Positions 3,084 to 58,791 of a stretch of DNA of 64,000 nucleotides are shown piece by piece. The notes under the pieces were generated by a model that searched no databases, was not told the origin of the DNA, and saw nothing but the letters and a program-made list of their open reading frames with translations. Each line of letters begins with the position of its first letter. Positions within the stretch are counted from its first letter, which is position 1. Made by a program: the position numbers and the translations under genes. This DNA comes from a virus, in the IMG/VR virus record IMGVR_UViG_3300037231_000119, positions 32,001-96,000 of that record; one strand, 5' to 3'.

Positions 3084-3314
3084 TCAAGATACTTCTTCCT
3101 CTCCTAAACTCTCAATGTCTTTTGTGGGAATTTCCAGCCACGAATAAGCTTCCGGGTCCATAGAAATAATCATTTCTCGAGCTGCTATAAAACCAGCCTT
3201 ATACAAATCCATTGCAAATTCCAACTCAATTTGTACTGGACGATTCCCGAAATCCAAAGTTACTAGGCCTGAATTTAGAGCTGCCTCTCGGGCTAATTGA
3301 TCAATTTTCTTCAT
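3084..3314 (-). CDS. Hypothetical protein
   Basis: Operon packing; GAGG RBS. Confidence 0.6.
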   Translation of the reverse strand: MKKIDQLAREAALNSGLVTLDFGNRPVQIELEFAMDLYKAGFIAAREMIISMDPEAYSWLEIPTKDIESLGEEEVS

Positions 3315-3317
3315 AAT

Positions 3318-3848
3318 TTATTCCTCTACACAGGTAATAGGCCTGTTATTGTATACATGAAATTTCTCAATTGCCAATTCGGCCTGATTTATAGCGCTCT
3401 GCTCGTCCGGAGCATAAACTTTTACCTTAGATTCGTATGAAGATCCTACACAATCCCAAATTGGATTATTGAATGAATCCGAGGGTATAGATGAACATCC
3501 GGTTAGGAAAAGACCTAAGATAAAAACCTTTACCTTAACAAAGACGGACGCCTTCTTTGGAGTTTCCCACTTCTTATGGAATGGATTTGCCAAACAAAAC
3601 TCCTGAGTACATTGGCCTTCATTATTAAGAAGGGTTTCGCACATACAGCAATTACAAATAATGATTTCTGATCTTGGATTTGGACAAACTAGTCTTCCCT
3701 CGTATACTTTACCAAAAAAATCGATGCCTGCTTCTGTAATTACACCATCCCTTAGTACCCATCCATAATCTGGGTGGAACATGTGTTCGGCTGGTCCCAT
3801 GTTGAGAGCGGATTGTATTGCCGCTTGTTCAACTTCTTCTTCGGTCAT
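3318..3848 (-). CDS. Hypothetical mosaic protein (Cys cluster, internal lipobox-like segment)
   Basis: Start MTEEE follows the stop of the upstream gene; contains ILGLFLTGC. Confidence 0.6.
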   Translation of the reverse strand: MTEEEVEQAAIQSALNMGPAEHMFHPDYGWVLRDGVITEAGIDFFGKVYEGRLVCPNPRSEIIICNCCMCETLLNNEGQCTQEFCLANPFHKKWETPKKASVFVKVKVFILGLFLTGCSSIPSDSFNNPIWDCVGSSYESKVKVYAPDEQSAINQAELAIEKFHVYNNRPITCVEE

Positions 3849-10653: not shown

Positions 10654-11398
10654 ATGTCTGCATAAATAGGAAGGATTTTTGGCACGATTTCTATATAAAA
10701 ATTTTTAGTGAAATCAGGGGGTTAGGACGGACCAATTTAGGGCTTAAATTTTAGGAAAAATAAAATTTATTTAGTGATATCAGGCACTTAGAATAAATGT
10801 AGTATCATGGGCCTTTACTTTCCCATACCCTAATAGACACTGCCTTGAGGGAATTATGTCAATCATTTCATATAGTTACGTTGAATTTGTGTGATCAAAC
10901 TTTATACATATACACCATATGACACATAGGTATACTGTCATTCTACTAACAGGGGTCGTGACACATGGACGCCCATGCAAGGTTGATGCCTGGAGACAGC
11001 TCGCTATAGGCGCGCCACGCATTGTATGCACTCCTATGACTCCCGATGCCTCAAGTCGTCTCATATGGCATCGTGGCGCGTCTAATGGGTTATAGTTGGA
11101 CGGTCGATTCCTATAGTTGGGCTATAGTTGAGGGGCGCGGGCTTATAGCCATGGCGTCACGCTTATATTGGGTTATACATATCCCCAAAACGTCAAACGA
11201 CTTTTACAGCTAAGTCCATAAAACTATTGAGTTTTGATTTTGAGACGTACCCGGATGCGGGTGGCAGTTGAGATGGTAGACGCAACAAAGCGTCACGCTG
11301 ATATGAGTCAGGCGACGCGGTTTGACTTTTATTTTTGTTACACTAAGGAATAGGGCCACCCAAACCGATCGAAAAATGGGGTGGCCCGTAGTAAAGAT

Positions 11399-11501
11399 TG
11401 TCGATCTTTTATACAAACGTATTGATCTTAGACGCGTTACTAATGACACACTTTAATGATTTCACATAGTTACGGCGCAATAGTTTGGCCTACCCATTGC
11501 A
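11399..11501 (+). promoter_or_regulatory. sigma54 promoter P1 with UAS-like and IHF-like sites
   Basis: TGGCCTACCCATTGCA (GG-N10-GC); TTTCACATAGTTA; tandem GTC-N9-TAC and GTA-N9-GAC. Confidence 0.75.
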
Positions 11502-11512
11502 GTTACCCTCTC

Positions 11513-12013
11513 ATGGGAACACACTTTGAAACTGAAGTCTGCTCTAGATGCCATGGTTCAGGTAAATACTCCTTTTGCGAGCGATACGCCGACCGTTGTT
11601 TTAAATGTGCCGGTCAAACGGTCGTGCTGACTAAACGCGGCGCCGCAGCTAAGACCTATCTCGAAACATTGTGCTCTAAACCCGCTAGCTCCCTCATGGT
11701 TGGAGATCGTATTTCTAGAAATAGTGTGACTTATGGCGGTTCTGTGTATTCCTACATCGCAACCGTGACCAAAGTTGAGGATGCTAACGATTCCCAGTCT
11801 GGCACGGTTATTGATGGTCAAACCGTTTGGACTAATAACAAAAATGTCTGCATAACAACGGAACATCCTAAGTATGGCATTGTGGGCCTGATATGCTCCC
11901 CAGATAGTCTCGTTAGGACATATCCTGTTGATAACGCTGCTAAAATCGCTATGGCATTGGAATATCAGGCAAAATTGACTAAACAAGGCAAACCGCGAAA
12001 GGTCTCTATATGA
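11513..12013 (+). CDS. Early protein with CxxCxGxG zinc finger
   Basis: CSRCHGSG..CFKCAG; ATG lies at the predicted sigma54 start site (leaderless). Confidence 0.75.
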   Translation: MGTHFETEVCSRCHGSGKYSFCERYADRCFKCAGQTVVLTKRGAAAKTYLETLCSKPASSLMVGDRISRNSVTYGGSVYSYIATVTKVEDANDSQSGTVIDGQTVWTNNKNVCITTEHPKYGIVGLICSPDSLVRTYPVDNAAKIAMALEYQAKLTKQGKPRKVSI

Positions 12014-12274
12014 AAACCCGATTTAGTACGATCGAACAAGTTTGGGAAGCGATTGAGAACGGTAAAGAAGTTTTTTGGTGCAATGACTCCTACCATCTCA
12101 CAATAGAGAACCCATCTCACAATAGAGAACCTATCTCCCTTCAGTGACACATTTACCTTGAAAGATGGCAAGTTGCTTAGAGTTACCTATATTGAGAACT
12201 ACTTTGGGTCTCTCCTACTAAAATCAGAGATTCCAAAGCTATACTGCTATGGCCCTATAAAGATGGTTGCCTAA
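12010..12274 (+). pseudogene. 81-aa gene frameshifted by a 19-nt tandem duplication
   Basis: CCATCTCACAATAGAGAAC x2 (12093-12130); removing one copy restores an ORF ending at TAA 12274. Confidence 0.7.
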
Positions 12275-12360
12275 GTCTTTTACACTGTATACTAGTTCTA
12301 CGGTTATTTTACTTCAGATTTCAATAGTTTCGCGTACTTATCTTTGGCACGCTGTTAGCA
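12269..12360 (+). promoter_or_regulatory. sigma54 promoter P2
   Basis: TGGCACGCTGTTAGCA; GTATACTAGTTCTAC UAS-like site; GATTTCAATAGTT. Confidence 0.75.
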
Positions 12361-12406
12361 TTACCTAGTACCGTACAGATTGAAAAACAAACTAGGAGAA
12401 CTCAAT

Positions 12407-12535
12407 ATGACAATTCAAATTGGTGATTTATACCCAGTTGGGATGATTTTTACAACTGACGATGGTCGTATGTATATCGCTGACGGCAGCTATAGACGCG
12501 AAAAAGACGAGACTCCGATGGGAACGAAGGACTAG
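12407..12535 (+). CDS. Small hypothetical protein (42 aa)
   Basis: AGGAG RBS downstream of P2. Confidence 0.55.
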   Translation: MTIQIGDLYPVGMIFTTDDGRMYIADGSYRREKDETPMGTKD

Positions 12536-12649
12536 TATGAAATTATCAAAGTATGACAAGAGGTATTGAATATGAAACCCCAAACACTCATAGTTTATAC
12601 GACTCTCCTAATAACTGCCCTAATCGACCTAATGGCGCGGAGTTAATTT

Positions 12650-12985
12650 ATGACTATCAAGAAATACATACAAGTGTGTGATCCTGGACATGGTTGGCTG
12701 AAAGTACCTAGGGCAGACTATGACGCTAGCGGTTTCAAGGCTAGCTCCTTCAGTTATCAATCGGATAATAGTAAGTACATCTACCTTGAGGAGGATTGTG
12801 ACCTATACGGGTTTTTGAAGGCGGCCGGTCTCCTAATGCCTTTCAATGGCTCATGGGCTATTGATAGATCTAAAGTCGAGATAGCCTATAAGCATGTTAA
12901 TAAAACTTCGATTAGGGATATGCGTCCTATCTCCCTAATGACTAGGGCGGAATATGAAAGTCGATTTAAAACCTTGAATCTCTAA
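12650..12985 (+). CDS. Conserved phage hypothetical protein (DPGHGWL...YLEEDCD family)
   Basis: Recognisable motif pair; GGAG RBS. Confidence 0.75.
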   Translation: MTIKKYIQVCDPGHGWLKVPRADYDASGFKASSFSYQSDNSKYIYLEEDCDLYGFLKAAGLLMPFNGSWAIDRSKVEIAYKHVNKTSIRDMRPISLMTRAEYESRFKTLNL

Positions 12986-13000
12986 ACTGAAAGGATTAAT

Positions 13001-13279
13001 ATGATGAAACAAGACGAATTTATTAATTTCAATAGTTCTAAGGGTTTCCATTGGTTTGATAAAGGAAGCATGGCATTTTTTAGGTCTAGGGTATCTAATT
13101 GGGATTCTATCTCGGGACTATTCATTAGCTCCGAACGCGGTCCTAATGGCGGTCGTGCCTATTCCATTCGAAAGGCTGACTTTGAGACTGGGAATGTTTC
13201 GACTATCGGTAAATTCCAGGCTTATGATTCTATTGGATCGGCCAAGACTGCTTTGAGACGCTTATTGCGAAATGGTTAA
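13001..13279 (+). CDS. Conserved phage hypothetical protein
   Basis: HWFDKGSMAFFRSRV...FISSE; AAGGA RBS. Confidence 0.7.
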   Translation: MMKQDEFINFNSSKGFHWFDKGSMAFFRSRVSNWDSISGLFISSERGPNGGRAYSIRKADFETGNVSTIGKFQAYDSIGSAKTALRRLLRNG

Positions 13280-13290
13280 CTATTAATCAC

Positions 13291-13364
13291 TGTCTACTAG
13301 TTCTACACTTAATTGGCTTCGTATCCCTGATTTTATTAGCTTTTATCTTGGCCCTTCGATTGCA
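13291..13364 (+). promoter_or_regulatory. sigma54 promoter P3
   Basis: TGGCCCTTCGATTGCA; GTCTACTAGTTCTAC; 13329-13372 is identical to 15903-15946. Confidence 0.8.
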
Positions 13365-13397
13365 ATACTATAGAACCATATATAGGAGACTTCGAAA

Positions 13398-13595
13398 ATG
13401 AAACCGCTTAAACTAAATGAATTGATTAAGTTACTCGAGTCTAATGGCTTCACCCTGATTCGCTCTAATGGTCACATGGTGTACGCAAATGGTATCGTGA
13501 GACTTGCCCTTGCCCACCAGCGCGTTGTTTCCCCTGGAATCATGAGGGAAGCAATGAGGGCTATTAAGATGGTTCAGATCGGGAAGGTTGCTTGA
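13398..13595 (+). CDS. hicA: HicA-family toxin-like protein (orphan)
   Basis: ELIKLLESNGFTLIRSNGHMVY...V SPG.MR pattern typical of HicA; 65 aa. Confidence 0.7.
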   Translation: MKPLKLNELIKLLESNGFTLIRSNGHMVYANGIVRLALAHQRVVSPGIMREAMRAIKMVQIGKVA

Positions 13596-13648
13596 TATGC
13601 TCGTATTTATTGTTGAAATCGTACCAACTAAAGAATCGAAAGGATTGT

Positions 13649-13822
13649 ATGGCTAAAAATCAATATGCCATTTTTGACTGGGCCGGCAATAGGCACGATA
13701 CCCTTGGTACTTTCGAATGCTTTGAATCGGCTTGGGACTTCATTTTGGGCGATTTAACCGATAGACTATCTCTAATTGAGGAAGACTATCAGGACTACTA
13801 CGTGGAGAGGGTTTCAATATGA
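13649..13822 (+). CDS. Small acidic hypothetical protein
   Basis: AAGGA RBS before MAKNQY. Confidence 0.6.
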   Translation: MAKNQYAIFDWAGNRHDTLGTFECFESAWDFILGDLTDRLSLIEEDYQDYYVERVSI

Positions 13823-13900
13823 TCACGACTTTGCTAGTTATTACCTATATCTCTTTAACTGTATTGGTTTATGACGTCTCAACTTCTTGAAAGGATTTAT

Positions 13901-14128
13901 ATGACCACAACTACCTATATTGTTAAGTTTACTAAGCATTTCGTTTCTGGCTCTCTTAGAGGATTGACCTATGATACCGAAGTTACCTATCCAAATTTGG
14001 ATGCCGCGTCTCGCCATGTGTCATTCTGTCATGATCACTTAACTAAACCAGTTAAGGCTTTTGGTGGGTCAAACTATACCTGCCATAGTGCTCGAATTGT
14101 GCCTGTAACTCGACGTTGCGAGGAATAA
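13901..14128 (+). CDS. Hypothetical protein
   Basis: AAGGA RBS before MTTTT. Confidence 0.6.
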   Translation: MTTTTYIVKFTKHFVSGSLRGLTYDTEVTYPNLDAASRHVSFCHDHLTKPVKAFGGSNYTCHSARIVPVTRRCEE

Positions 14129-14137
14129 AAGTGATCT

Positions 14138-14602
14138 ATGGGACACATAACCTTGCTAGTATTCATTCTCCTATTCTCATGTGGTCAAAATCCAAACGTG
14201 GCACCTATTCAGGCCGTAACGGTCGATCCTGCTTTACAGCCATACTTTGACGCATTCCAAACGACTATCGGTTATCCCTCAACTGGCATCAATGGTCAAT
14301 TTTCCGATACTGAATCGAATCCAAACCCATTAGGCGAAACTATTGGGGAATGCACTATCTATAGCGATGGCATTCGGACTATCCAAATTGACTCTTCGTT
14401 TTGGGCTTCTGCCGATGAATCTGAAAGGACACAGATCGTTTTTCACGAAATTGGGCACTGCGCCTTGAATTTACAGCATATTGTGAGTGAGTTACCTAGT
14501 GGTTGTCCTACTAGCATTATGTATCCGTATACGTTTGGGGATAACCCATGTTATGCGTCTAACCTGACCTACTATTTTAATGAACTTGCTTCACATAGAT
14601 AA
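14138..14602 (+). CDS. Lipoprotein zincin metallopeptidase
   Basis: Lipobox LFSC; HEIGHCALNLQH; SIMYP Met-turn. Confidence 0.8.
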   Translation: MGHITLLVFILLFSCGQNPNVAPIQAVTVDPALQPYFDAFQTTIGYPSTGINGQFSDTESNPNPLGETIGECTIYSDGIRTIQIDSSFWASADESERTQIVFHEIGHCALNLQHIVSELPSGCPTSIMYPYTFGDNPCYASNLTYYFNELASHR

Positions 14603-14607
14603 GACTC

Positions 14608-14710
14608 GTATAACTTTCATACAATCGTATAGTTCTTAATCAGGCATTCAAGACACACTTCTAATGAATTCGCATACTTGCGCTATCTATTCCTTGGCCC
14701 TTACTTTGCA
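14608..14710 (+). promoter_or_regulatory. sigma54 promoter P4
   Basis: TGGCCCTTACTTTGCA; GTATAACTTTCATAC; AATGAATTCGCATACTTG. Confidence 0.75.
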
Positions 14711-14747
14711 ATACTAATCATAACCGAACTCTAGAAAGGAATTCGAA

Positions 14748-14900
14748 ATGGAACTCTCAACTAAGATGTTTATGGTTTACGAAATTGCCTACCTCATGGG
14801 CAATAAGCATCTTGACCTGCCCAAAGCTCATAGACTGGCTAGCAACTTCTCGGATGCTGAATTGAATCGAATCTATAATGCTCTTATCAAAAGGAACTAA
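14748..14900 (+). CDS. Small hypothetical protein (50 aa)
   Basis: AAGGA RBS downstream of P4. Confidence 0.55.
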   Translation: MELSTKMFMVYEIAYLMGNKHLDLPKAHRLASNFSDAELNRIYNALIKRN

Positions 14901-15565
14901 TATGATTACCAAAATTGACCTATCTATGAGCAGTATTGACCGCAATGAAATTTATGCGTCATTGGATTCTAAAGCTATCCTCGAAAAGTTTGAATTGCAT
15001 GACGTCAATAAGCTTTTAGAGGATAATGAGGATATTTATTGGACCGGCGAAGCTGAAAAGTATCTAAATGAGACTTTAGGCCTTGAAGTTGTTTGGAGCG
15101 GCAATACCTATAACCATGAGTCAGATCTAACCGATATCATGCAATGGGCCATTATGGCACCTAAAGGCTCTGAACTCTATTCAGACGGCATTCTATTGGT
15201 TCAATTACATCATGGTGGCGACGCACGCGGTAACTATGGGAGTGTCAAGGCATACAAATGGGAAGGAGAAGACACATTCTTCTTTCTAGACACGGTCGTG
15301 GGGTGGTATATTACCGATTTGGAAGGTGAAAGACTCGAAACCAATTTAACTCGGCGTTTCGAATCGGGATATTCTCAAAATCCCACATATGAACTCAATA
15401 AGCATATCGTCAAAATTATTGAAATCAGTGAAGAATCGGCCAAAATTGAATTGGATGATGGCACGGTATGCAATATCAGTCCCGAACATTCGGCTAACTG
15501 GGCTTAATCCGAAAAGTGAATTTTAAGGGGAATCTATAGTGCTCTTATCAAAAGGAACTAATATG
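14869..15565 (+). repeat. 36-nt direct repeats (14869-14904 and 15530-15565) flanking one gene
   Basis: GAATCTATA(A/G)TGCTCTTATCAAAAGGAACTAATATG, one mismatch. Confidence 0.9.
14902..15507 (+). CDS. Acidic hypothetical protein
   Basis: NTYNHESDL...LHHGGDARGNY; AAGGA RBS. Confidence 0.75.
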   Translation: MITKIDLSMSSIDRNEIYASLDSKAILEKFELHDVNKLLEDNEDIYWTGEAEKYLNETLGLEVVWSGNTYNHESDLTDIMQWAIMAPKGSELYSDGILLVQLHHGGDARGNYGSVKAYKWEGEDTFFFLDTVVGWYITDLEGERLETNLTRRFESGYSQNPTYELNKHIVKIIEISEESAKIELDDGTVCNISPEHSANWA

Positions 15566-15847
15566 TTTAATAAGAAGCTGTATAAGTTTATGATCAATGG
15601 TAAGAGATACTATACATGCGCCTATTCCGCCGATCAAGCATGGTTCTTCATTCAATGGCGCATTGAAAATGGTAACCCATAATATGCAAGTTAGAATTAG
15701 TTCTAATATATGTGATCTATCGGGAGTAGGGCTTGAGTACCTGCTAGACGACTCAGGATCTATTAGGGCGGTCTTTTGGAATGGCAATATAGATGGTTGC
15801 GAGACGATTCAGGGCAATTCAGAGATAACCAAGGGTGTTGCTTAACT

Positions 15848-15938
15848 GTCTAAGGTTTTCAATCCGTATAAAAGATATACGGCATTCTTTTACTGCATAC
15901 ACGATTTTATTAGCTTTTATCTTGGCCCTTCGATTGCA
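15848..15938 (+). promoter_or_regulatory. sigma54 promoter P5
   Basis: TGGCCCTTCGATTGCA; CGTATAAAAGATATACG UAS-like palindrome. Confidence 0.8.
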
Positions 15939-15951
15939 ATACTATATAACC

Positions 15952-16107
15952 ATGAGAACGATAGAAATAACCTACAAGATCAAGGGAGAATTGAAAGAAT
16001 CGAGTTACAACGTTCGGACTAGTGGGGAAGCGATTAGGCTCCTTCTAAGCGGTCTGTCTAGACGTGATAAACTCAGTTTCAAAATAGTCAAAATATCAAT
16101 GATTTGA
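15952..16107 (+). CDS. Small basic hypothetical protein
   Basis: ATG near the predicted P5 start site. Confidence 0.55.
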   Translation: MRTIEITYKIKGELKESSYNVRTSGEAIRLLLSGLSRRDKLSFKIVKISMI

Positions 16108-16116
16108 AAGGATTAT

Positions 16117-16314
16117 ATGGCCAAGATTATCGATTTAAAGACTCGGGAAGTGTTAGCTGATCTGCCAGTAAAGTTGACTAGTCGCGTAGTGACTCTTTGG
16201 GCATCTCCTAAGAAATTCAACTTGTATGCCATTGCCGTGACTTCCTTCGGTGCATCTACATATCTGGGAAATATAACGGGTCCCATCAAAACGATTACAA
16301 AGAAAGTAGGATAA
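16117..16314 (+). CDS. Hypothetical protein
   Basis: AAGGA RBS. Confidence 0.65.
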   Translation: MAKIIDLKTREVLADLPVKLTSRVVTLWASPKKFNLYAIAVTSFGASTYLGNITGPIKTITKKVG

Positions 16315-16315
16315 T

Positions 16316-16876
16316 GTGTTGAAACTTAAAAAGACTTATGAATTTGAAAAAATTGGCTTGAATGAAGTAATCGGATTGAAAGTTGCAATGGAAGAAGTTT
16401 TGCAACCAATTGTGAACCATCTAGAGCGGTCAATTCATTGGATTGATGATCTTAAGTTTTCCGAGACTGAGTACCGCTCTAGGGATGGTTTTATACCCTA
16501 TGAGTCAAATTGCGGTGGAATGGAATTGTGCGAGATTATCCCAAAGTGTGAGGAATATAACTTTTCATTCCTAGAATTTGGGGAATGTGACGAATGCAAT
16601 GGTGAAACGCAATGCGGTTATGAAGGTATGGAGTGTGCGGGCGATTCGGAGGGCCATAATGATGCTAAGTTGCGCGTATGGCTTAAGTTCGAAGGTATTG
16701 AGAATGGTATCATGAGTTTCTATCTCGTTCTATCTGGCGGCAATGGAGATGCGCCATACTTCAGGGAGAAGTCTTCTACTACATACTTTGAAAGTGAATT
16801 CAAAGCTTGCTCACTTGAGGCATTCAAACGAATCGCAACGGGGCATGTTGCCGAACTATTGAAGGTAATGAAGTAA
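16316..16876 (+). CDS. Acidic Cys-containing hypothetical protein
   Basis: 186-aa ORF with YRSRDGFIP motif. Confidence 0.75.
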   Translation: MLKLKKTYEFEKIGLNEVIGLKVAMEEVLQPIVNHLERSIHWIDDLKFSETEYRSRDGFIPYESNCGGMELCEIIPKCEEYNFSFLEFGECDECNGETQCGYEGMECAGDSEGHNDAKLRVWLKFEGIENGIMSFYLVLSGGNGDAPYFREKSSTTYFESEFKACSLEAFKRIATGHVAELLKVMK

Positions 16877-16904
16877 TTCAAAAGTGAATTTTTGAAAGGA
16901 ATAT

Positions 16905-17435
16905 ATGAATAAAGAAATCAAAGCATTGAACAATAAATTGGCCAACATTTCAGATAACGAATTTGCGATCAAACAAGAATTGCAACTGGCCTGGAATAAA
17001 GTGTTTGACGATATGAGTGTCCTTCGTGATGCAATTACCAAAGTTGAAGCGTCCAATGAGTACACTTGGGAGTCTAGAGGCGAGGATATTTGTTCCTGGA
17101 TTCGATTCGATACTAAGTCTTTTGATGATTGTGCTGAGTATCTGAAAGAATACTTGAGGAATGAACATTACGTCGAAATTGACTTCGAAAACGATGCTTT
17201 GTTGTATTCCATGGGTCCATCTATTATCATCAATGAGGATGGTGACGTCCTAGATCAAGACGGCGATAAATGGTTCATCAATAAGGATGATTATCGAGAC
17301 GAGGATTCTGGCGACTTGAATGAAGGTAAACGAAATGAATTGATTGAAGCTTATATGGAAAAAACGGGTTGCTATCCTGGAGTATTCCGCACCGACCGTC
17401 ATGGCAATGTTTTTGCGGTCAGTACTAAAGCCTGA
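16905..17435 (+). CDS. Highly acidic hypothetical protein
   Basis: About 22% Asp+Glu; AAGGA RBS. Confidence 0.75.
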   Translation: MNKEIKALNNKLANISDNEFAIKQELQLAWNKVFDDMSVLRDAITKVEASNEYTWESRGEDICSWIRFDTKSFDDCAEYLKEYLRNEHYVEIDFENDALLYSMGPSIIINEDGDVLDQDGDKWFINKDDYRDEDSGDLNEGKRNELIEAYMEKTGCYPGVFRTDRHGNVFAVSTKA

Positions 17436-17464
17436 AAAGTGAATTTTAAGGAGAACTAAACTAT

Positions 17465-17695
17465 ATGAACCACTACTTTACATTGTTTTTCACTGAAGAC
17501 TATGAGCCAACTGATCAAGAGATACATTACTTTGAAGCCTTTACAGGTCGGGAGATAGGTGTAGGAGATGGATTCATTAATGTGTATACGATTGACGAGA
17601 CCATCATAAAAGACTTGATCGATATTATCGGCGAATTCTACATCAGTGAAGTTAGTCCTGCTTTGACCGTAGAAGTGAATTTTAAGGAGAATTGA
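17465..17695 (+). CDS. Acidic hypothetical protein
   Basis: GGAG RBS. Confidence 0.65.
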   Translation: MNHYFTLFFTEDYEPTDQEIHYFEAFTGREIGVGDGFINVYTIDETIIKDLIDIIGEFYISEVSPALTVEVNFKEN

Positions 17696-17696
17696 T

Positions 17697-17894
17697 ATGT
17701 ATACATTTATTGTTCTAGTAACCGATGAACCGATGCAGTCCTTCACAAGTGTAGTATCAGCTATTGATTATGCGGCCAGACATGTCTATCTGCCAGTGGA
17801 AAAAGGGCGTGCTTGTTGTAAGGCGCTTAATGAGGGAAGACCATATGCATATAGTTATGGATTTAAAGAAGTAGAAATTAGAGTGGAGAATTGA
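17697..17894 (+). CDS. Hypothetical protein
   Basis: GGAG RBS. Confidence 0.65.
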   Translation: MYTFIVLVTDEPMQSFTSVVSAIDYAARHVYLPVEKGRACCKALNEGRPYAYSYGFKEVEIRVEN

Positions 17895-18050
17895 TATGAC
17901 CGCATTCGTAATCGGCTTAGGTATTGTCTGGCTAGTAACCGCCTTATCGGGAAAGGATTTCAAAGTCACGGGCTTTGGAGGCATCCTCCTCGCTATAGGT
18001 ATCTGTTATGGACTGGGATCTTTAGTTCTACTTCTTTTAAAGAGGTAGGT

Positions 18051-18143
18051 GTATAGCAGATTAACAGCCGACAATAAGTTACCCGAAAAGTGAATTTCAG
18101 CATCCAATAATTTCAAGTACTTAAGCTTGGCACAACAATAGCA
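18051..18143 (+). promoter_or_regulatory. sigma54 promoter P6
   Basis: TGGCACAACAATAGCA; IHF-like TTTCAAGTACTTA. Confidence 0.75.
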
Positions 18144-18171
18144 ATAGATAGTAATAAGAGGTAATTTAAAA

Positions 18172-18582
18172 ATGCGATCACTACGGTCAAATCTAGTTCT
18201 GGTATCGGCCTACGGTTCTAAACTCTCGAATGAGCAAAATCATGCCAACCATGAGAAGGCCATTGAAATGCTTGAGAGAGACAACGTTCGATTCCAGGTA
18301 GTCAATGGAGTCTATAAGGGAGCCAAGGAGCTTGTATTCCTAATGGCTAGCACTGACACTGATACACATGACCAAAATGTGACGACCGCTTATATGTTAG
18401 GGCACTTGTTTAATCAAGAGAGTCTACTTGAAGTTCATAACGACAATACGGCGGTACTTCACTACTTGGGAGGCGAGAGCGTTAGCCTTGGGAAGTTTCA
18501 GGAAGTTAGTGAATTTGAAGCTTTGAGTCACGATTCATATACGCATGAGCCAGTATTGGATCGATATTTTGTGGTTAAGTAA
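18172..18582 (+). CDS. S-adenosylmethionine lyase (T3 SAMase-like), putative anti-restriction/anti-BREX
   Basis: VLVSAY..N..NH, GVY...E, FNQESLL, LGKFQEV parallel T3 gp0.3 motifs (VLVSAF, GCYRE, WEQDCVL, GSFQEV). Confidence 0.75.
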   Translation: MRSLRSNLVLVSAYGSKLSNEQNHANHEKAIEMLERDNVRFQVVNGVYKGAKELVFLMASTDTDTHDQNVTTAYMLGHLFNQESLLEVHNDNTAVLHYLGGESVSLGKFQEVSEFEALSHDSYTHEPVLDRYFVVK

Positions 18583-18603
18583 TTAAAACTTAAGGAGAAT
18601 AGT

Positions 18604-19584
18604 ATGAGTATTAAGGGGTTCAAAGCAATGAGTGCAGATATGACCTGCCGTGAGTTTAAATTCAAAGTAGGTAAAACCTATACTACCGATACGGTTACTA
18701 TGTGTTCTAGCGGGTTTCATTTTTGTGAGAATGCGTTTGATGTATACAATTACTATCCTAAGAGCGTCAATACGGTCGTATGTGAAATAGAAGCGTTAGG
18801 TGAAGTTCTTAAAGAGGGAGATAAAAGCGCAACTAATAAAATTAAGATCATTAGAAAATTAACAGAAACCGATTTACTTAATCTTTGGATTAAACGAACG
18901 AACTCGGGCTATGGGAACTCGGGCAATAGGAACTCGGGCGATTGGAACTCGGGCGATTGGAACTCGGGCTATGGGAACTCGGGCAATAGGAACTCGGGCG
19001 ATGGGAACTCGGGCGATTGGAACTCGGGCAATAGGAACTCGGGCAATAGGAACTCGGGCGATGGGAACTCGGGCGATTGGAACTCGGGCAATAGGAACTC
19101 GGGCTATGGGAACTCGGGCAATAGGAACTCGGGCTATGGGAACTCGGGCAATAGGAACTCGGGCGATTGGAACTCGGGCGATGGGAACTCGGGCTATTTT
19201 AATACAACTATTCCAGTTTATCTCTTCAATAAGCCATCCACTATGGTCTACTCGGAGGAATTTGAAAATCGTATTAGAGGCTTATCTGTCAAGCCTATTC
19301 TTGAATGGGTTGGAATGGACACTATGACTGAGGAAGAAAAAACGATTTACCCATCCCACAAAACTACAGGCGGATTCCTACGTAAAACAGATAGGTTCGA
19401 CTGGCGCTATCTGACCAATGAAGATAAGGAATTCATTAAGGCACTTCCAAATTTCGATGATAGCTTGTTTAAACAAATCAGTAATGGTGTCAGTCTTTCA
19501 GATAATGTGGAAGTTACTATTAATGGTAAAACTAAAACTATCTCCAAGGCTAAGGCTATTGAGATGGGGTTAATCGAAGAATAG
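18604..19584 (+). CDS. Phage protein with NSGxx pentapeptide repeats
   Basis: N-terminal GFK...CSSGFHFC..YY domain followed by 20 NSGxx repeats. Confidence 0.85.
   Translation: MSIKGFKAMSADMTCREFKFKVGKTYTTDTVTMCSSGFHFCENAFDVYNYYPKSVNTVVCEIEALGEVLKEGDKSATNKIKIIRKLTETDLLNLWIKRTNSGYGNSGNRNSGDWNSGDWNSGYGNSGNRNSGDGNSGDWNSGNRNSGNRNSGDGNSGDWNSGNRNSGYGNSGNRNSGYGNSGNRNSGDWNSGDGNSGYFNTTIPVYLFNKPSTMVYSEEFENRIRGLSVKPILEWVGMDTMTEEEKTIYPSHKTTGGFLRKTDRFDWRYLTNEDKEFIKALPNFDDSLFKQISNGVSLSDNVEVTINGKTKTISKAKAIEMGLIEE
18901..19200 (+). repeat. Tandem repeat, 20 x 15 nt
   Basis: AACTCGGGC plus AATAGG/GATTGG/TATGGG/GATGGG. Confidence 0.95.
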
Positions 19585-19629
19585 GGTCAGAAGTGATTTT
19601 TAACAAAAGTGAATTTTAAGGGGAATGGT

Positions 19630-20007
19630 ATGTTGAAGAAGAATGCAATGAGATGGGTTAAGGCTTTGAGATCTGGTAAGTATAAACAGGGAGATCAATT
19701 TTTAATGAGGGGAGATGAAGACTCAGTCCATAGATTTTGTTGCCTCGGGGTATTGGCAGCCATCAATGGAGTTGAGGTTGAACCAGACGATCGTCAGGCT
19801 CTTGATAACGGCTTGCATGTGGACTGTGACCTCGCCACCGAAGCGGGAAGAATCTATAAGCTCGATGAATATAACAACCGTTTTCCAATTAAACTGAAGG
19901 TGGGAGGAAAACTGTGGTCTTACCAATCGTTGGCGGATGCTAATGATAGTGGTGCAAGTTTTAAGGTCATCGCAACTTGGATTGAAAAGAACTATAGGTT
20001 AATTTAG
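19630..20007 (+). CDS. Conserved phage hypothetical protein
   Basis: WVKALRSGKYKQG...FCCLGVL...ND.G.SF..IA.WIE. Confidence 0.75.
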   Translation: MLKKNAMRWVKALRSGKYKQGDQFLMRGDEDSVHRFCCLGVLAAINGVEVEPDDRQALDNGLHVDCDLATEAGRIYKLDEYNNRFPIKLKVGGKLWSYQSLADANDSGASFKVIATWIEKNYRLI

Positions 20008-20053
20008 TTCCAGAAGTGAATTTTCAGCGTCGATAAACAATAAGAAGGAAAAT

Positions 20054-20806
20054 ATGAATAACGGTATTAAGTTGATCTTGATCTTGGTTGGATGTGTTGT
20101 GTTGAATGGCTGCGGTGGGAGTCAAGGTAATACGGGCGCAACGGGAGCACAAGGCAATGACGGAGCGGTCGGCGCAACTGGTGTAACCGGTCCTACGGCA
20201 TCTCCTAGTCCAACGGCAACCGAGTCAGCTGCTCAAGTATTGGTTGATGAAGTTAATGCTTCTAGGGAGTTACAAGGACAAGCTCCATTCACTTCCGGTC
20301 TTGCTTGTACGGTCCAAGCAGTTGGATCTGGCCAATGGTTGTCGGCTTCTAGTCCCGGGTACGTCGCCTTGACTGCGGCACAACAGACAGCGGAGGGTAT
20401 TATTACGGTTCTGGCCGGTTCTAAGTCCTATCCCTATCTGTTCACCGGCTCGTTTGACCAGGTTAATAGCGGTCCAGGGGCCAACAGCCTATTGCCAACG
20501 GCCTTGCAACCACTATTCTTGGCCAATAACTATAAGATCGGCTGTAATGGTCAACTTGTGATTACTCAAGCTGGATACTATACGTTGGATATGAACAGCG
20601 ATGATGGATCGATCCTAACCATTGACGGTGTTCAGGTCATCAATAATGACGGTAACCATGCCATGACTGATGGAACGGGCGTATACTTCTTTACTGAGGC
20701 AGTCCATACGTTTAGCTTGCTCTATGCTCAATCTGGTGGTGGTAACTTTGGATTGGTGCTTCAGTCTAATGGCACGGTTCTCGATGGTTCGTTGTTCTAT
20801 CATTAA
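20054..20806 (+). CDS. Lipoprotein with collagen-like segment and PA14 domain
   Basis: Lipobox LNGC; GxT repeats; SDDGSILTIDG.QVINNDGNH. Confidence 0.85.
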   Translation: MNNGIKLILILVGCVVLNGCGGSQGNTGATGAQGNDGAVGATGVTGPTASPSPTATESAAQVLVDEVNASRELQGQAPFTSGLACTVQAVGSGQWLSASSPGYVALTAAQQTAEGIITVLAGSKSYPYLFTGSFDQVNSGPGANSLLPTALQPLFLANNYKIGCNGQLVITQAGYYTLDMNSDDGSILTIDGVQVINNDGNHAMTDGTGVYFFTEAVHTFSLLYAQSGGGNFGLVLQSNGTVLDGSLFYH

Positions 20807-20885
20807 TAGTTAAGGCGCCCCATATGTGATTTTAGGGTTGCATATGGGATTTTTTATAAAAGTGAATTTTAACAAAGGAGTTTAT

Positions 20886-21203
20886 ATGAATAAGATCTTG
20901 ATCGGCTTGTCTTTCTTGGTAATGTCCTGTGGTTCTGGTTCCTCTAGTCCATTCGCCCCTTCTTGTCAGACGGGTCAGTTACTTGGATATGACAATCAAT
21001 GCTATTCCTGTAATACCGGTACCCCAGAATACGCATCGGGGGAATTTGGATACTGTAGTTCCATAAATTCTGGGGGAGTTACTTGTTGTTCTACGGAATT
21101 CTGGAACTATAATAACATTACTTGTGAGCCAAGAACCCCATGGTTGTGTTCGGATGCACTATGCCACTCTTCAAATATTGGAGTTTGTGTTTATCTTCCA
21201 TGA
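20886..21203 (+). CDS. Cys-rich lipoprotein
   Basis: Lipobox VMSC; many Cys; GGAG RBS. Confidence 0.7.
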   Translation: MNKILIGLSFLVMSCGSGSSSPFAPSCQTGQLLGYDNQCYSCNTGTPEYASGEFGYCSSINSGGVTCCSTEFWNYNNITCEPRTPWLCSDALCHSSNIGVCVYLP

Positions 21204-21229
21204 GAAGTGAATTTTAAGGAGAATTCTAT

Positions 21230-21451
21230 ATGACCAAATATGAAGAAAGTCAACAAGCTAAAAGAATTCTGGCCGGTCAGTTTTATGCCGCTCCACCATA
21301 TGAAGGATGGGCTAAGCTTTATGTGGACGCCGAACGTGGTATTCCAAAGGCTTGGTATAACGATTTCATTGACGAATTGGTTAGTGAAGATGTGCACTAC
21401 AGACATCAGCTTGAGGAGTCGGTGAGATATTTTGGGGTGCATTGGGTATGA
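21230..21451 (+). CDS. Hypothetical protein
   Basis: GGAG RBS. Confidence 0.6.
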   Translation: MTKYEESQQAKRILAGQFYAAPPYEGWAKLYVDAERGIPKAWYNDFIDELVSEDVHYRHQLEESVRYFGVHWV

Positions 21452-21660
21452 CAGACGTAGTTTTTAGGGCAGACTTAGAACCAATGAGCTGTTCAACTTG
21501 TAATGTTCCTCTGAAGAAAGCTTCATATGTTCCAGGAAACCATGGACTTTATTGTAATATATGTGTTGAATTCGTGGAAGAAATTGAAGAAGAGGGGGAG
21601 CAAGAAATTGTGGAAGATAGTGGGGTTGTGCCAGAAGTGAATTTTGAGGAGGCAGTATGA
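21448..21660 (+). CDS. Zinc-ribbon acidic protein
   Basis: CSTC..CNIC. Confidence 0.55.
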   Translation: MTDVVFRADLEPMSCSTCNVPLKKASYVPGNHGLYCNICVEFVEEIEEEGEQEIVEDSGVVPEVNFEEAV

Positions 21661-21866
21661 AAAGTGTTTTTCTGGTAGAGTCAGGAGAGAGATATGAGGG
21701 ATCGGTTGTTATAGGAGTTTATAGATCCCGAGGCGGTGTTGTTCAGGCAGCGATGGATGAACAGGAGGATCACGAAGGAAAATGGGTTAAGAACAATCAC
21801 TCTTCTTATTGAACCAATGGATCCGACTATGTGCGCATAACTGAAATTGACGTTGAGGAGTAAAAT

Positions 21867-22055
21867 ATGGATTTTGTTAATGGAGATACTGTGATCATGA
21901 AGTCTGGTGGACCTACTATGATCGTTATAGATGAAAACACAAAGTATGGTTATGTAACCTGCGCATGGTTTGATAGAAATGGTGAAGTTCATCAAAATAA
22001 CTTTCTTCCCATTACATTGGAAAAATATAGGCGCCCAAGGCCAGGTCCAAGATGA
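21867..22055 (+). CDS. YodC/DUF2158-family protein
   Basis: F..GDTV.MKSGGPTM.V...VTCAWF. Confidence 0.85.
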   Translation: MDFVNGDTVIMKSGGPTMIVIDENTKYGYVTCAWFDRNGEVHQNNFLPITLEKYRRPRPGPR

Positions 22056-22157
22056 GTGCGCCAGGACCAACCAAGTTAGATAGGCAAATGGCCCATGTAT
22101 GTTTTCTATTGTCGATTGTGATTTTTGTGATAGTGTGGAAACTGAAATGAGTAATTT

Positions 22158-22325
22158 ATGAAATATTTGAAAGTGATTTTGCAGCCAATTAAAATTAAGG
22201 GTGACTTGGATGATGAAACCCAACTACAGCAGGATGTGTATGAGAAAGTAATGAATATGATCGAGTCGGAAACATTGTCGTTCCAGGTGGACGACGAGGA
22301 AGAGGAAGACGACTGTGACTTCTAA
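22158..22325 (+). CDS. Small acidic protein (55 aa)
   Basis: Manually found: MKYLKVILQPIKIKGDLDDE...DDEEEEDDCDF. Confidence 0.5.
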   Translation: MKYLKVILQPIKIKGDLDDETQLQQDVYEKVMNMIESETLSFQVDDEEEEDDCDF

Positions 22326-22536
22326 TATTTCAATGTTGGAATTTTACCGAATGCTTGAAGAGCACGACTGGTACTTTACCATGTCGGATGACAGAAGTGT
22401 TTATCTTAGGGGAAGCCGAGAGGAATCGGAACTAAAAGCTATTTCTAGCAGTTCTCCTGAACGTAAGGCTCTTTATGATGAGTACTATTCCTATCAGTGG
22501 AAGGGTACTGAAAAGCCAGCTAAGCCTCTATTCTAA
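22315..22536 (+). CDS. Hypothetical protein (HDWYF.MSDD family)
   Basis: Recognisable motif. Confidence 0.65.
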   Translation: MTSNISMLEFYRMLEEHDWYFTMSDDRSVYLRGSREESELKAISSSSPERKALYDEYYSYQWKGTEKPAKPLF

Positions 22537-23739: not shown

Positions 23740-23816
23740 GGCAGCTAGAAAATCAAATTTTCGCTTGACCATCTTCTCGAGAGTTGATATGGTACTAATT
23801 AAGGAGTAACTGAATT

Positions 23817-24059
23817 ATGAACAACCTTTACGAGATCGGTCCAGACCTCTTTGAAGTCCACTCAAGCCGCCCTACAGCTGTCTACAAGGGCACGCAGCTT
23901 CAAACCTTAGTCTATTGCGTCCAAGTGCTCAAAGTCGATCCAGAACAACTACAGTTCGCTATGATAGATATGATTCAGAAGGATCACAACAGCGCGGACT
24001 TTGGTATTCTTGGAACATTCCTGTATAGTTTTAATAGATATGAAAAGAAGGCTTCCTAA
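23817..24059 (+). CDS. Hypothetical protein
   Basis: TTGACC promoter and AAGGAG RBS. Confidence 0.7.
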   Translation: MNNLYEIGPDLFEVHSSRPTAVYKGTQLQTLVYCVQVLKVDPEQLQFAMIDMIQKDHNSADFGILGTFLYSFNRYEKKAS

Positions 24060-31987: not shown

Positions 31988-32377
31988 TTAGGTAACGGGA
32001 GGAGCCCAGGAAATCTGAATACGAGCTGGCCCACAATCACAACCACAGTTACAATTCCATGTCTCATAGCCTGGAGGCAAAGCTTCGGGGAATCCGGCTA
32101 CGAAACACGGCGCGTACGGATAGCCAGGAAAGCCACAATTGAAGGGGAAGATAGGGAAGTTGACTACATAGCCAAGAGGGGTAAAGTAGTTGGTCACATA
32201 GGTAGAGGTCAAGAAAGGGATCATGAAGGGCTCTACCTGAGTAAGGCCATTAGCAATAGCGGCGTTGATTAGGACGGTAGCAGAAGCCACAAAAGTAGCC
32301 TCAGCCGTGACCATAAGAGAGGCAACGGTGGCTTGGGAGGCGGTAAGGGCTGCGGAGGCGGTAGGGAGGGTGGGCAT
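31988..32377 (-). CDS. Late hypothetical protein, Cys/Pro-rich
   Basis: Late motif 5 nt upstream of ATG. Confidence 0.65.
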   Translation of the reverse strand: MPTLPTASAALTASQATVASLMVTAEATFVASATVLINAAIANGLTQVEPFMIPFLTSTYVTNYFTPLGYVVNFPIFPFNCGFPGYPYAPCFVAGFPEALPPGYETWNCNCGCDCGPARIQISWAPPVT

Positions 32378-56931: not shown

Positions 56932-58791
56932 ATGTCAACTTATATTTCGGGCGTAGCTAGTTGTTCCGCAATTGATACCGCTGGGGAAATTGTAGATATT
57001 AGCGGTCTCGACATAACCTCCTTAGCTCGTAGCGGTACTTGTAACTGGGAACACAAAGCCGACACCCCGGCACAAACAGTTGGCAAAATACTAAAGGCAA
57101 AAAAGATCTTTAGTGAAAAAGACTGTGAAGATTCCAATCAAAAACACTTTTGGGATAAAACCAAACTACCGTTCGTATATATAGTTGCGGAGCTTTTGGA
57201 TGATTATACGGCTAGTGCAAAAGAATGTGCTGGTCAGATGAGGTACAGTAAGGACCATCCCGAACTATCGGCAATTTTAGGATTTTCCGTTGAAGGAAGT
57301 GAAATACCCGGAACCAGGAAAAATTCCATGCTGATCACACGATCGATTGCAAGAAAGGTTACGCTTACCGTATCTCCAGCAAATAAGTTATGTATTGCTC
57401 AAATTTTCGAGAACCCAGAACAAAAATCCCAAGTCAAAGATGATTTTGAAGAATTGTTTCGTTCTGACCAAGAAGCTATCACTCTCTTCAAGTCAGGTGA
57501 AGGCGAAAAGATTTACGAATCCTATTTGGCCAAAAAAGAGCATGAGCCTAAGAAGCCGTGTAAACATAAGAAAATGAAAAAAGATGAATTTGGTTATCCA
57601 GATTCCCCTAAAACTTCAGCGCCCCCTCCAGAACCAAATAAAGCAAACGCCCAAGCTATGCAAAATGGCGCTGAATCAGGCGGTCCAAGTTTCTCTCAGG
57701 GCCTATCTAACCTGGCCAATGGCTTAATGGGTAAAAGTGAAAACTTCGGATGGTCTAAGGGTAAAGTGGATAAGGATAAAAAGGCAGTTCACTACGAACA
57801 CCCAACTCATGGCACGGTTTCCGTAATCAGACACGATAATGGCGATTTCCACGTAAAGCATCGTGGGGCTTTGGCTGGTGTTGGTGGAGTTAAGGGCTCT
57901 TTCCCTACTTCTGGAGAAGCCGGTACTCACGCTAAGAAATATATGTCTTCCTTAAGCCAGGGTAAAACTTTGGCACCACAAATGCATAATATTTCATCAA
58001 CGGACGTTGCGAGCAAAAAACATCTTAAAAAAGCCATCGATGCCGGTTCCTACAATGCCGCCCCCTCTACCCTAGCTTCCGGTGCCGCTTATCAACGCGA
58101 AAGTCTTGGTTCAAAGCCTGCAACTACTGGGGCTGAAGACCATAACTTTCAGGGGACTAAGAAGAAGGACTGGAATAAGAGATCGAAAGAAGATTACGAG
58201 AATTGGCCCCAAAAAGAGAAGTTTGAGAAGTTTATGTCTGCTAGAATGCCTCATTTGGCATTAGGCGAGATAAAAGCTCTGGGCCGGGCGATATGCTTGA
58301 AAAAGAACATCGAGGCGGAGAAAGCTCTTGGTAATTTGGTTTTGGGTAAGTCTGAAGAGGACCCCAAACTCGGCAATCATTTTCTTTTCAGTGCTGAAAA
58401 TCCAATGCATCCCCATAAAAATGAAAGCAGGATGGACCATAAACAGACCCTGGTACACTTAAAAAGTAAGGGTTTTGATGCCAATGAAGTTAAGGGGCAT
58501 TATGGCGCTCCGGAGACCTCGATCATGGTCCACAATGTTAATCCCAAACAGGCAGAGCATCTTCACGGAATAGCCTCCAAACTTGGTCAGGATAGTTCGA
58601 TCTATAGTAATAATGGCAAGCATGAGATGCGCTACCATCACGGTGAAAAGGCAGGAAAGTCCCATTTAGGTTCTGGTACCGAATTCCATAAAGAAAAGCC
58701 TAAGGATTTCTATACTACTCTACCTAATGGAAAACACTTCACTCACAATTTTGATTTTGATCAATTACATAATAGTAAAAAGAAAAAATAG
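56932..58791 (+). CDS. Prohead protease with C-terminal cargo modules including a SAM-lyase-like domain
   Basis: ISGVAS..AID..GEIVD..GLDI...NWEH...LGFSVEG...VTLT..PAN; C-terminal FSAENP..GHYG..E..LGQDS. Confidence 0.85.
   Translation: MSTYISGVASCSAIDTAGEIVDISGLDITSLARSGTCNWEHKADTPAQTVGKILKAKKIFSEKDCEDSNQKHFWDKTKLPFVYIVAELLDDYTASAKECAGQMRYSKDHPELSAILGFSVEGSEIPGTRKNSMLITRSIARKVTLTVSPANKLCIAQIFENPEQKSQVKDDFEELFRSDQEAITLFKSGEGEKIYESYLAKKEHEPKKPCKHKKMKKDEFGYPDSPKTSAPPPEPNKANAQAMQNGAESGGPSFSQGLSNLANGLMGKSENFGWSKGKVDKDKKAVHYEHPTHGTVSVIRHDNGDFHVKHRGALAGVGGVKGSFPTSGEAGTHAKKYMSSLSQGKTLAPQMHNISSTDVASKKHLKKAIDAGSYNAAPSTLASGAAYQRESLGSKPATTGAEDHNFQGTKKKDWNKRSKEDYENWPQKEKFEKFMSARMPHLALGEIKALGRAICLKKNIEAEKALGNLVLGKSEEDPKLGNHFLFSAENPMHPHKNESRMDHKQTLVHLKSKGFDANEVKGHYGAPETSIMVHNVNPKQAEHLHGIASKLGQDSSIYSNNGKHEMRYHHGEKAGKSHLGSGTEFHKEKPKDFYTTLPNGKHFTHNFDFDQLHNSKKKK

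Follow-up and report, generated by a model that had tools for sequence, protein, structure and literature searches.

What kind of promoter heads the operons of a phage accessory gene block, and whose polymerase reads it? This question is raised by a 64,000-nucleotide window (positions 32,001 to 96,000) of IMG/VR record IMGVR_UViG_3300037231_000119, in which a plus-strand block of small genes is punctuated by six boxes of the form TTGGC-N9-GCA, here called P1 to P6. The record is 162,446 bp long with 43.6% G+C, is rated complete by CheckV, and is an uncultured relative of Myxococcus phage Mx1. Judged by their sequence, P1 to P6 are a real promoter set, probably of the sigma-54 type. The reading that we favor, and hold to be reasonably likely, is that they are read by host sigma-54 (RpoN) polymerase, opened by a host activator, with each box heading one operon of the accessory block.

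Six boxes in the long gaps of the accessory block

The original prediction described six co-oriented TTGGC-N9-GCA boxes with exact GG-N10-GC spacing, and all six were recovered where it had placed them, on the plus strand. In the window, this pattern occurs 10 times, whereas 1.7 matches are expected and all of 100 shuffles yield fewer than 10. A stricter pattern, TGGC[AC]C-N5-T[TA]GC[AT], has five matches in the whole genome, and all five are among the six boxes. Additionally, a position matrix built from the sites gives the boxes 22–28 bits, while the next-best genomic site scores 14.8.

Each of the six long gaps between genes of the block (1,051 nt in total) holds one of the boxes, which stand one per operon start, on the same strand as the genes and 13–50 nt ahead of an ATG. 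At the rate observed in the rest of the genome, 0.03 boxes would be expected in those 1,051 nt, giving a P of about 1e-12. P3 and P5 share an identical run of exactly 44 nt, as originally noted (13329–13372 and 15903–15946), and P is about 2e-10 when this duplicate is counted once.

The published sigma-54 consensus is TGGCAC-N5-TTGCW (PMC12316311). For site scoring, we counted matches to the 12 positions of TGGCACG-N4-TTGCW; such generic scoring returns many background matches in coding DNA and is useless without gene context. The six boxes match 9–11 of the 12 positions, their GG and GC are invariant, and the GG-N10-GC spacing is exact in 6/6. The assignment to the sigma-54 class, for which a scan for RpoN sites had been proposed, is supported by the consensus scores and the matrix ranking, by the GG-N10-GC geometry, by the location at operon starts, and by recurrence in three related phages.

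A sigma-70 interpretation was tried and rejected. The two halves of the box (TGGCNN-N5-TTGCA) lie far closer together than the 16–18 nt of a -35/-10 pair. Taking TTGGCC as a -35 element yields inconsistent -10 hexamers, and the RNA start of P5 would fall past its ATG. Furthermore, -35/-10 pairs show no excess in the block region (18 found, 23 expected from shuffles). Outside these gaps, a sigma-70-like sequence, TTGACC-N17-TATGGT, lies at 23766–23794 (+), where a long AT-rich gap precedes the gene at 23818; therefore, the phage has ordinary promoters too.

The six units differ in their leaders. For P1 and P5, an in-frame ATG lies 13 and 15 nt, respectively, past the C of GC and no Shine-Dalgarno sequence precedes it, in agreement with the earlier description of both as leaderless-looking. 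The other four promoters (P2, P3, P4, and P6) have leaders of 18–37 nt with a Shine-Dalgarno sequence.

The block encodes a zinc-ribbon protein, a DUF7447 protein, a HicA-like protein, an SprT-like protein, an S-adenosylmethionine (SAM) lyase, a DUF7666-pentapeptide protein, and PA14/collagen proteins. Of the two genes that the original prediction had singled out by name, the SAM lyase behind P6 is firmly identified (PF23780, E 2.5e-18), whereas the HicA assignment of the gene behind P3 is weak, as its match reaches only 22 bits and falls under the Pfam cut-off. Cultured phages gave no blastn match to the block, and when three block or flanking genes were searched as proteins against IMG/VR and JGI metagenomes, no relatives turned up. 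Rfam gave no family over 10.5–24.5 kb, and no tRNA was found in the 64-kb window.

Two further observations concern genes of the window. A protease-SAM lyase fusion gene at 56932–58791, outside the block, carries a second SAM-lyase domain; inside it and in the same direction lies a sigma-54-like box, TTGGCACCACAAATGCA (57970–57986, +; 10/12), which may be a chance match or an internal promoter. Within the block, a perfect 19-bp tandem duplication at 12094–12131 (CATCTCACAATAGAGAACC twice) frameshifts the gene starting at 12010; it could reflect a genuine mutation or faulty assembly. With one copy removed, the frame continues to a stop at about 12274; therefore, the true gap before P2 would be about 131 nt, and the P2 upstream element would follow closely behind a stop codon, like that of P3.

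Upstream elements and recurrence in related phages

Each box was originally said to be preceded by one or two imperfect palindromes of the form GT(A/C)-N9-(T/G)AC. Together, the six upstream regions hold seven matches to GT[AC]-N9-[TG]AC against 0.6 expected, although the pattern was picked after the sequences had been viewed. Three of the seven start at -59, -58, and -58 from the GG. The palindrome upstream of P5 (Table 1) has a T run behind it and is also scored as a terminator-like hairpin; the two roles are compatible. A stricter and more independent test used TGT[ACT]TA.?CTAGTT, which has two matches in this phage genome, both upstream of boxes (P2 and P3).

An AT-rich site resembling that of integration host factor (IHF) had also been predicted in front of each box. 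The DNA between the upstream elements and the boxes is indeed AT-rich (63–70%), but the IHF-like site itself did not survive inspection: no exact match to WATCAA-N4-TTR occurs there, and the best partial scores (7–8/9) equal those of random AT-rich windows.

Closer relatives exist among uncultured phages, with capsid proteins that are 87–94% identical. The block is present in synteny in three of them: G002 (166 kb, complete, also recovered as L080), L077 (QGNH01001129.1), and C54 (PLEQ01000059.1). The block genes of this phage and G002 are essentially unrelated while the flanking genes are syntenic; therefore, the block is a hypervariable accessory region. L077 and C54 likewise have other genes in the block. 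The boxes recur nonetheless. G002 has four on the gene strand in block gaps, at 161560, 165740, 1780, and 2790 (excess P 0.004), and one of its block gaps, 3258–3340, holds a tRNA-like gene. C54 has two boxes, in its two largest gaps (excess P 1e-4), one of them with an ATG 13 nt past GC, as at P1. L077 has a single box, near-identical to P6, which heads the whole block.

Aligning the 13 sites of the four phages leaves only T-TGGC(A/C) and (T)TGCA(A)TA conserved, with a free N5 spacer and exact GG-N10-GC spacing in 13/13. Two fixed blocks around a variable spacer fit recognition by a protein that contacts both blocks and do not fit a copied repeat.

The upstream element recurs as well. TGT[ACT]TA.?CTAGTT has one copy in G002, which precedes the box at 2790 by 74 nt, and the relaxed form TGT[AC][AT]A-N4-5-TTC[TG] also precedes boxes in C54 and L077, with chance expectations of 0.004–0.09 per genome. 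Thus, an element of the form TGT(A/C)(T/A)A-N4-5-TTC(T/G) is kept in all four phages, with its center about 76–99 nt before the predicted start. This position falls in the classical enhancer range, and the element is a candidate enhancer.

An exact scan of IMG/VR for the promoter pattern gave a sole match, a coincidence within a coding sequence.

Table 1. Boxes, upstream elements, and other repeated or structured features of the block and its surroundings (window coordinates)
Feature	Position	Strand	Sequence	Remarks
P1, -24/-12 box	11485–11501, GG 11487	+	TTGGCCTACCCATTGCA	ATG 11513, leaderless-like
P2 box	12344–12360, GG 12346	+	TTGGCACGCTGTTAGCA	11/12 consensus positions; ATG 12408
P3 box	13348–13364, GG 13350	+	TTGGCCCTTCGATTGCA	ATG 13398, HicA-like gene
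P4 box	14694–14710, GG 14696	+	TTGGCCCTTACTTTGCA	ATG 14748
P5 box	15922–15938, GG 15924	+	as P3	ATG 15952
P6 box	18127–18143, GG 18129	+	TTGGCACAACAATAGCA	in front of SAM lyase gene, 18172–18582
Two elements before P1	11400–11433	+	GT(A/C)-N9-(T/G)AC	87 and 68 nt before GG
P2 upstream element	12285–12301	+	CTGTATACTAGTTCTAC	GTA-N9-TAC, starts 59 nt before GG
P3 upstream element	13290–13306	+	CTGTCTACTAGTTCTAC	distance to GG as in P2
Sequence before P4	14608–14622	+	GTATAACTTTCATAC	88 nt before GG; then TAGTTCTTA at 14630
Perfect palindrome upstream of P5	15864–15882	+	CCGTATA-N5-TATACGG	distance to GG as for P2 and P3 elements
Accessory block	11513–22530	+		about 35 small genes, predicted to be served by P1–P6
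G+C-rich hairpin	11353–11387		GGGCCACCC...GGGTGGCCC	read from sequence; closes preceding minus-strand genes, just before P1 region
Junction motif, ten copies	15514, 16882, 17437, 17673, 18088, 19607, 20014, 20860, 21205, 21635 (span 15514–21644)	+	AAGTGAATTT(T)	
Second promoter-like motif	2199(-), 45208(-), 53028(-), 56391(+), 56907(+), 59890(-), 62379(+)		(C)CAATCTTATA	

Two other repeated motifs were found. The motif AAGTGAATTT(T) lies at gene junctions within operons in the block's downstream half, in most cases immediately ahead of a Shine-Dalgarno sequence, and has no other genomic copies. It is also present in the blocks of G002, C54, and L077, where it often abuts the start codon (AGTGAATTTTATG). 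An RNA hairpin was considered and discarded, as the folding energies are no better than those of shuffles; the motif may be a translational operator like the T4 RegA sites or a cassette-boundary sequence. The second motif, (C)CAATCTTATA, has about 20 non-coding genomic sites. Most precede a gene by 20–60 nt, in many cases a structural one, and the motif resembles a further promoter class, phage-specific and perhaps late, with a single -10-like element.

Candidate readers of the boxes

Searches of the phage genome in six frames found no Sigma54_DBD, Sigma54_activat, Sigma70_r2, or T7-type RNA polymerase domain. Comparison of 20 large phage open reading frames with Pfam identified a portal, a GroEL-like chaperonin, DNA polymerase III alpha, a ribonucleotide reductase, and helicases, and none of the 20 is an RNA polymerase. 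Therefore, the phage needs a host polymerase for at least its first genes. The absence of an activator gene from the window, noted originally, was confirmed by profile search and extends to the whole phage genome: no bacterial enhancer-binding protein (bEBP; Sigma54_activat) was found in this phage or in G002, G003, G001, or Mx1. Likewise, rpoN was not found in the window, the whole phage genome, or the relatives searched.

A candidate host comes from C54, a 69-kb contig (39.7% G+C; capsid protein 93% identical) that is binned in the metagenome-assembled genome (MAG) 'Deltaproteobacteria bacterium isolate bog_1112'. Its presence there may point to the host or may result from misbinning. The MAG, about 4 Mb in size, encodes rpoN and about eight strongly matching bEBPs, and one of its non-phage contigs has 44.7% G+C. 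Among the 13 genomes searched, comprising this MAG and its 12 nearest relatives, 11 have rpoN.

Within the MAG, a composite pattern of enhancer plus box occurs on the phage contig only. Two host-side searches gave no link to a regulon. GTATA-N5-TATAC has two sites in the MAG against three in a control, neither beside a box. Across 41 genomes around the MAG, matches to the composite pattern are scattered, many lie in coding DNA, and they form no regulon.

Based on these observations, the following course of events is proposed. Host sigma-54 polymerase would dock on TGGC (-24) and TTGCA (-12) as a closed complex. A host AAA+ enhancer-binding protein, probably bound at TGT(A/C)(T/A)A-N4-5-TTC(T/G) and acting across AT-rich, probably bent DNA, would open the complex, and only then would RNA start about 12 nt past GC. 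Each box would start one transcription unit of the hypervariable accessory or counter-defence block, with the SAM lyase behind P6, and the P1 and P5 units would yield leaderless or near-leaderless mRNAs. Because three related phages carry the same boxes, the block genes probably fire only with a working host activator. As originally suggested, the block may be expressed early and may be gated by a specific host bEBP, which could let the phage sense the state of its host.

Several points weigh against this reading. The relaxed form of the upstream element was defined after its instances had been seen. Neither the candidate host MAG nor its relatives yielded a regulon that fits the element, so the proposed matching of these sites to host bEBP regulons failed. 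MAG binning is weak evidence of host identity; therefore, the MAG shows only that a plausible host has sigma-54 machinery. The cultured relative Mx1 has no excess of sigma-54 boxes, and its block promoters are of the ordinary sigma-70 type. The (C)CAATCTTATA class of promoter-like sites implies phage specificity factors beyond sigma-54. Finally, one would hardly expect an activator-dependent promoter in front of genes that should act at once, such as the SAM lyase. Two considerations may soften this oddity: sigma-54 promoters would escape any phage shut-off of sigma-70, and a second SAM-lyase domain is available from the protease-SAM lyase fusion gene outside the block.

Three other explanations of the boxes were weighed. 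They might be promoters read through a phage-specified factor, sigma-like or polymerase-modifying and possibly delivered with the virion, for which neither host sigma-54 nor a bEBP would be needed; its preference for a two-block site like -24/-12 would then be a coincidence. Such a factor would remove the need for an active host bEBP at immediate genes, many phage open reading frames have no family match, and the (C)CAATCTTATA motif, as a second lineage-specific class, implies that the phage has specificity factors of its own. However, neither a sigma or sigma-54 domain nor an RNA polymerase domain came out of the six-frame searches described above, conservation falls precisely on the canonical sigma-54 positions with N5 spacing in 13/13 sites, and, if the block is early, no phage-made factor would yet be present. 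We therefore consider this explanation unlikely.

We give still less credence to the idea that the boxes are operators, or recombination or boundary sequences of cassettes, with the true promoters elsewhere. No alternative promoter was found in these gaps, and 13/13 sites are oriented with the genes, 18–37 nt before an ATG (about 9–15 nt in three cases) or at the block start. The TTGGC and TGCAA halves are partly symmetric and could form a pseudo-palindromic operator, and a recombination origin would suit a cassette-like hypervariable block that has other conserved junction motifs, such as AAGTGAATTT, and a 44-nt duplication at P3/P5; a recombination scar, however, would not leave the spacer variable while the two blocks stay fixed. 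A last possibility is that the boxes match by chance and that one local duplication raises their number; P3 and P5 are indeed copies, and the generic GG-N10-GC scoring does return many matches in coding DNA, but the low P with the duplicate counted once and the independent replication in three other phages make this explanation extremely improbable. Collectively, the comparison favors reading by host sigma-54 polymerase with a host activator.

A bolder extension of the favored reading can be offered only tentatively, and we think it rather doubtful as a whole. The Mx1-related lineage may have given up its ordinary early promoters and adopted enhancer-dependent control by sigma-54, with a conserved enhancer of its own. 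Expression of the whole fast-evolving counter-defence block would in that case require one particular host AAA+ activator to be at work, switched on, for instance, by envelope or RNA damage at infection; alternatively, an activator of a novel type would come with the virion. On this extension, sigma-54 would represent an undescribed route of phage gene control.

Comparison with known sigma-54 systems and phages

Sigma-54 promoters remain silent until an ATP-driven activator opens them. They need an AAA+ activator, and an IHF site is frequent but not obligatory. If P1 to P6 are of this kind, the timing of accessory and anti-defence genes would be handed to a host signalling protein, or would be spared the phage's own shut-off of sigma-70. 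Moreover, the host must then have rpoN, which provides a clue to its identity. In the literature searched, arrays of sigma-54 promoters at the head of phage accessory blocks were not described.

The classical enhancer-dependent promoters are glnAp2 with NtrC, nifH with NifA (TGT-N10-ACA), and pspA with PspF. Like them, P1 to P6 have GG and GC one helical turn apart within T-TGGC-A/C and TTGCA blocks, and an inverted-repeat-like site lies 70–100 nt upstream with AT-rich DNA between. In contrast to them, P1 to P6 lie on a virus, with no cognate activator gene nearby and no IHF consensus; two of the units look leaderless, and the upstream sequences GTA-N9-TAC and TGTATA-N4-TTCTAC are not assignable to a known bEBP.

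The only cultured relative, Mx1 (OR576727.2, L082; major capsid protein 47% identical), also has a long block of small genes, at 81–120 kb, with a short promoter repeated in many gaps. However, the highly repeated promoter of Mx1 is of the sigma-70 type (TTGAC-N17-18-TA.AGT, with GATC, as GGATC, in the spacer), whereas the present block has sigma-54-like boxes; therefore, the promoter class of the accessory block differs between relatives. The one intergenic box match in the small-gene block of Mx1, at 91116 (-), proved to be a sigma-70-type TTGACT promoter. Separately, Mx1 has a near-consensus box, TTGGCACGAATCCTGCT, at 146909 (-), in the gap upstream of the primase-helicase gene.

The closest precedent is YuA, a phage of Pseudomonas aeruginosa. 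According to two reports (PMC5053324, PMC10914365), its development strictly requires host sigma-54, reliance of phages on sigma-54 is 'rare, not unprecedented' with YuA as the example, and one sigma-54-like YuA start was confirmed by ONT-cappable-seq. In the YuA record (AM749441), three promoter-trap fragments are annotated '-24/-12 consensus sequence', all in the structural (late) region, and with identical scoring they match the sigma-54 consensus less well than P1 to P6. The sigma-54-dependent promoters of YuA were reportedly described by Ceyssens et al. in 2008.

Both phages are tailed and lack an RNA polymerase, rpoN, or bEBP of their own as far as the searches go, and YuA uses host sigma-54, as this phage probably does. 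The YuA fragments, in contrast, lie partly inside genes and have no annotated enhancer element. In the present phage, each operon of a hypervariable block of small genes begins with a box, the boxes have an upstream element in common, and they persist in a lineage of Mx1-like phages about 160 kb in size. Collectively, what is new relative to YuA is a design that stands at the head of every block operon and persists across relatives while the genes behind it turn over, together with a candidate enhancer; this conserved promoter array and its candidate enhancer make the proposal directly testable.

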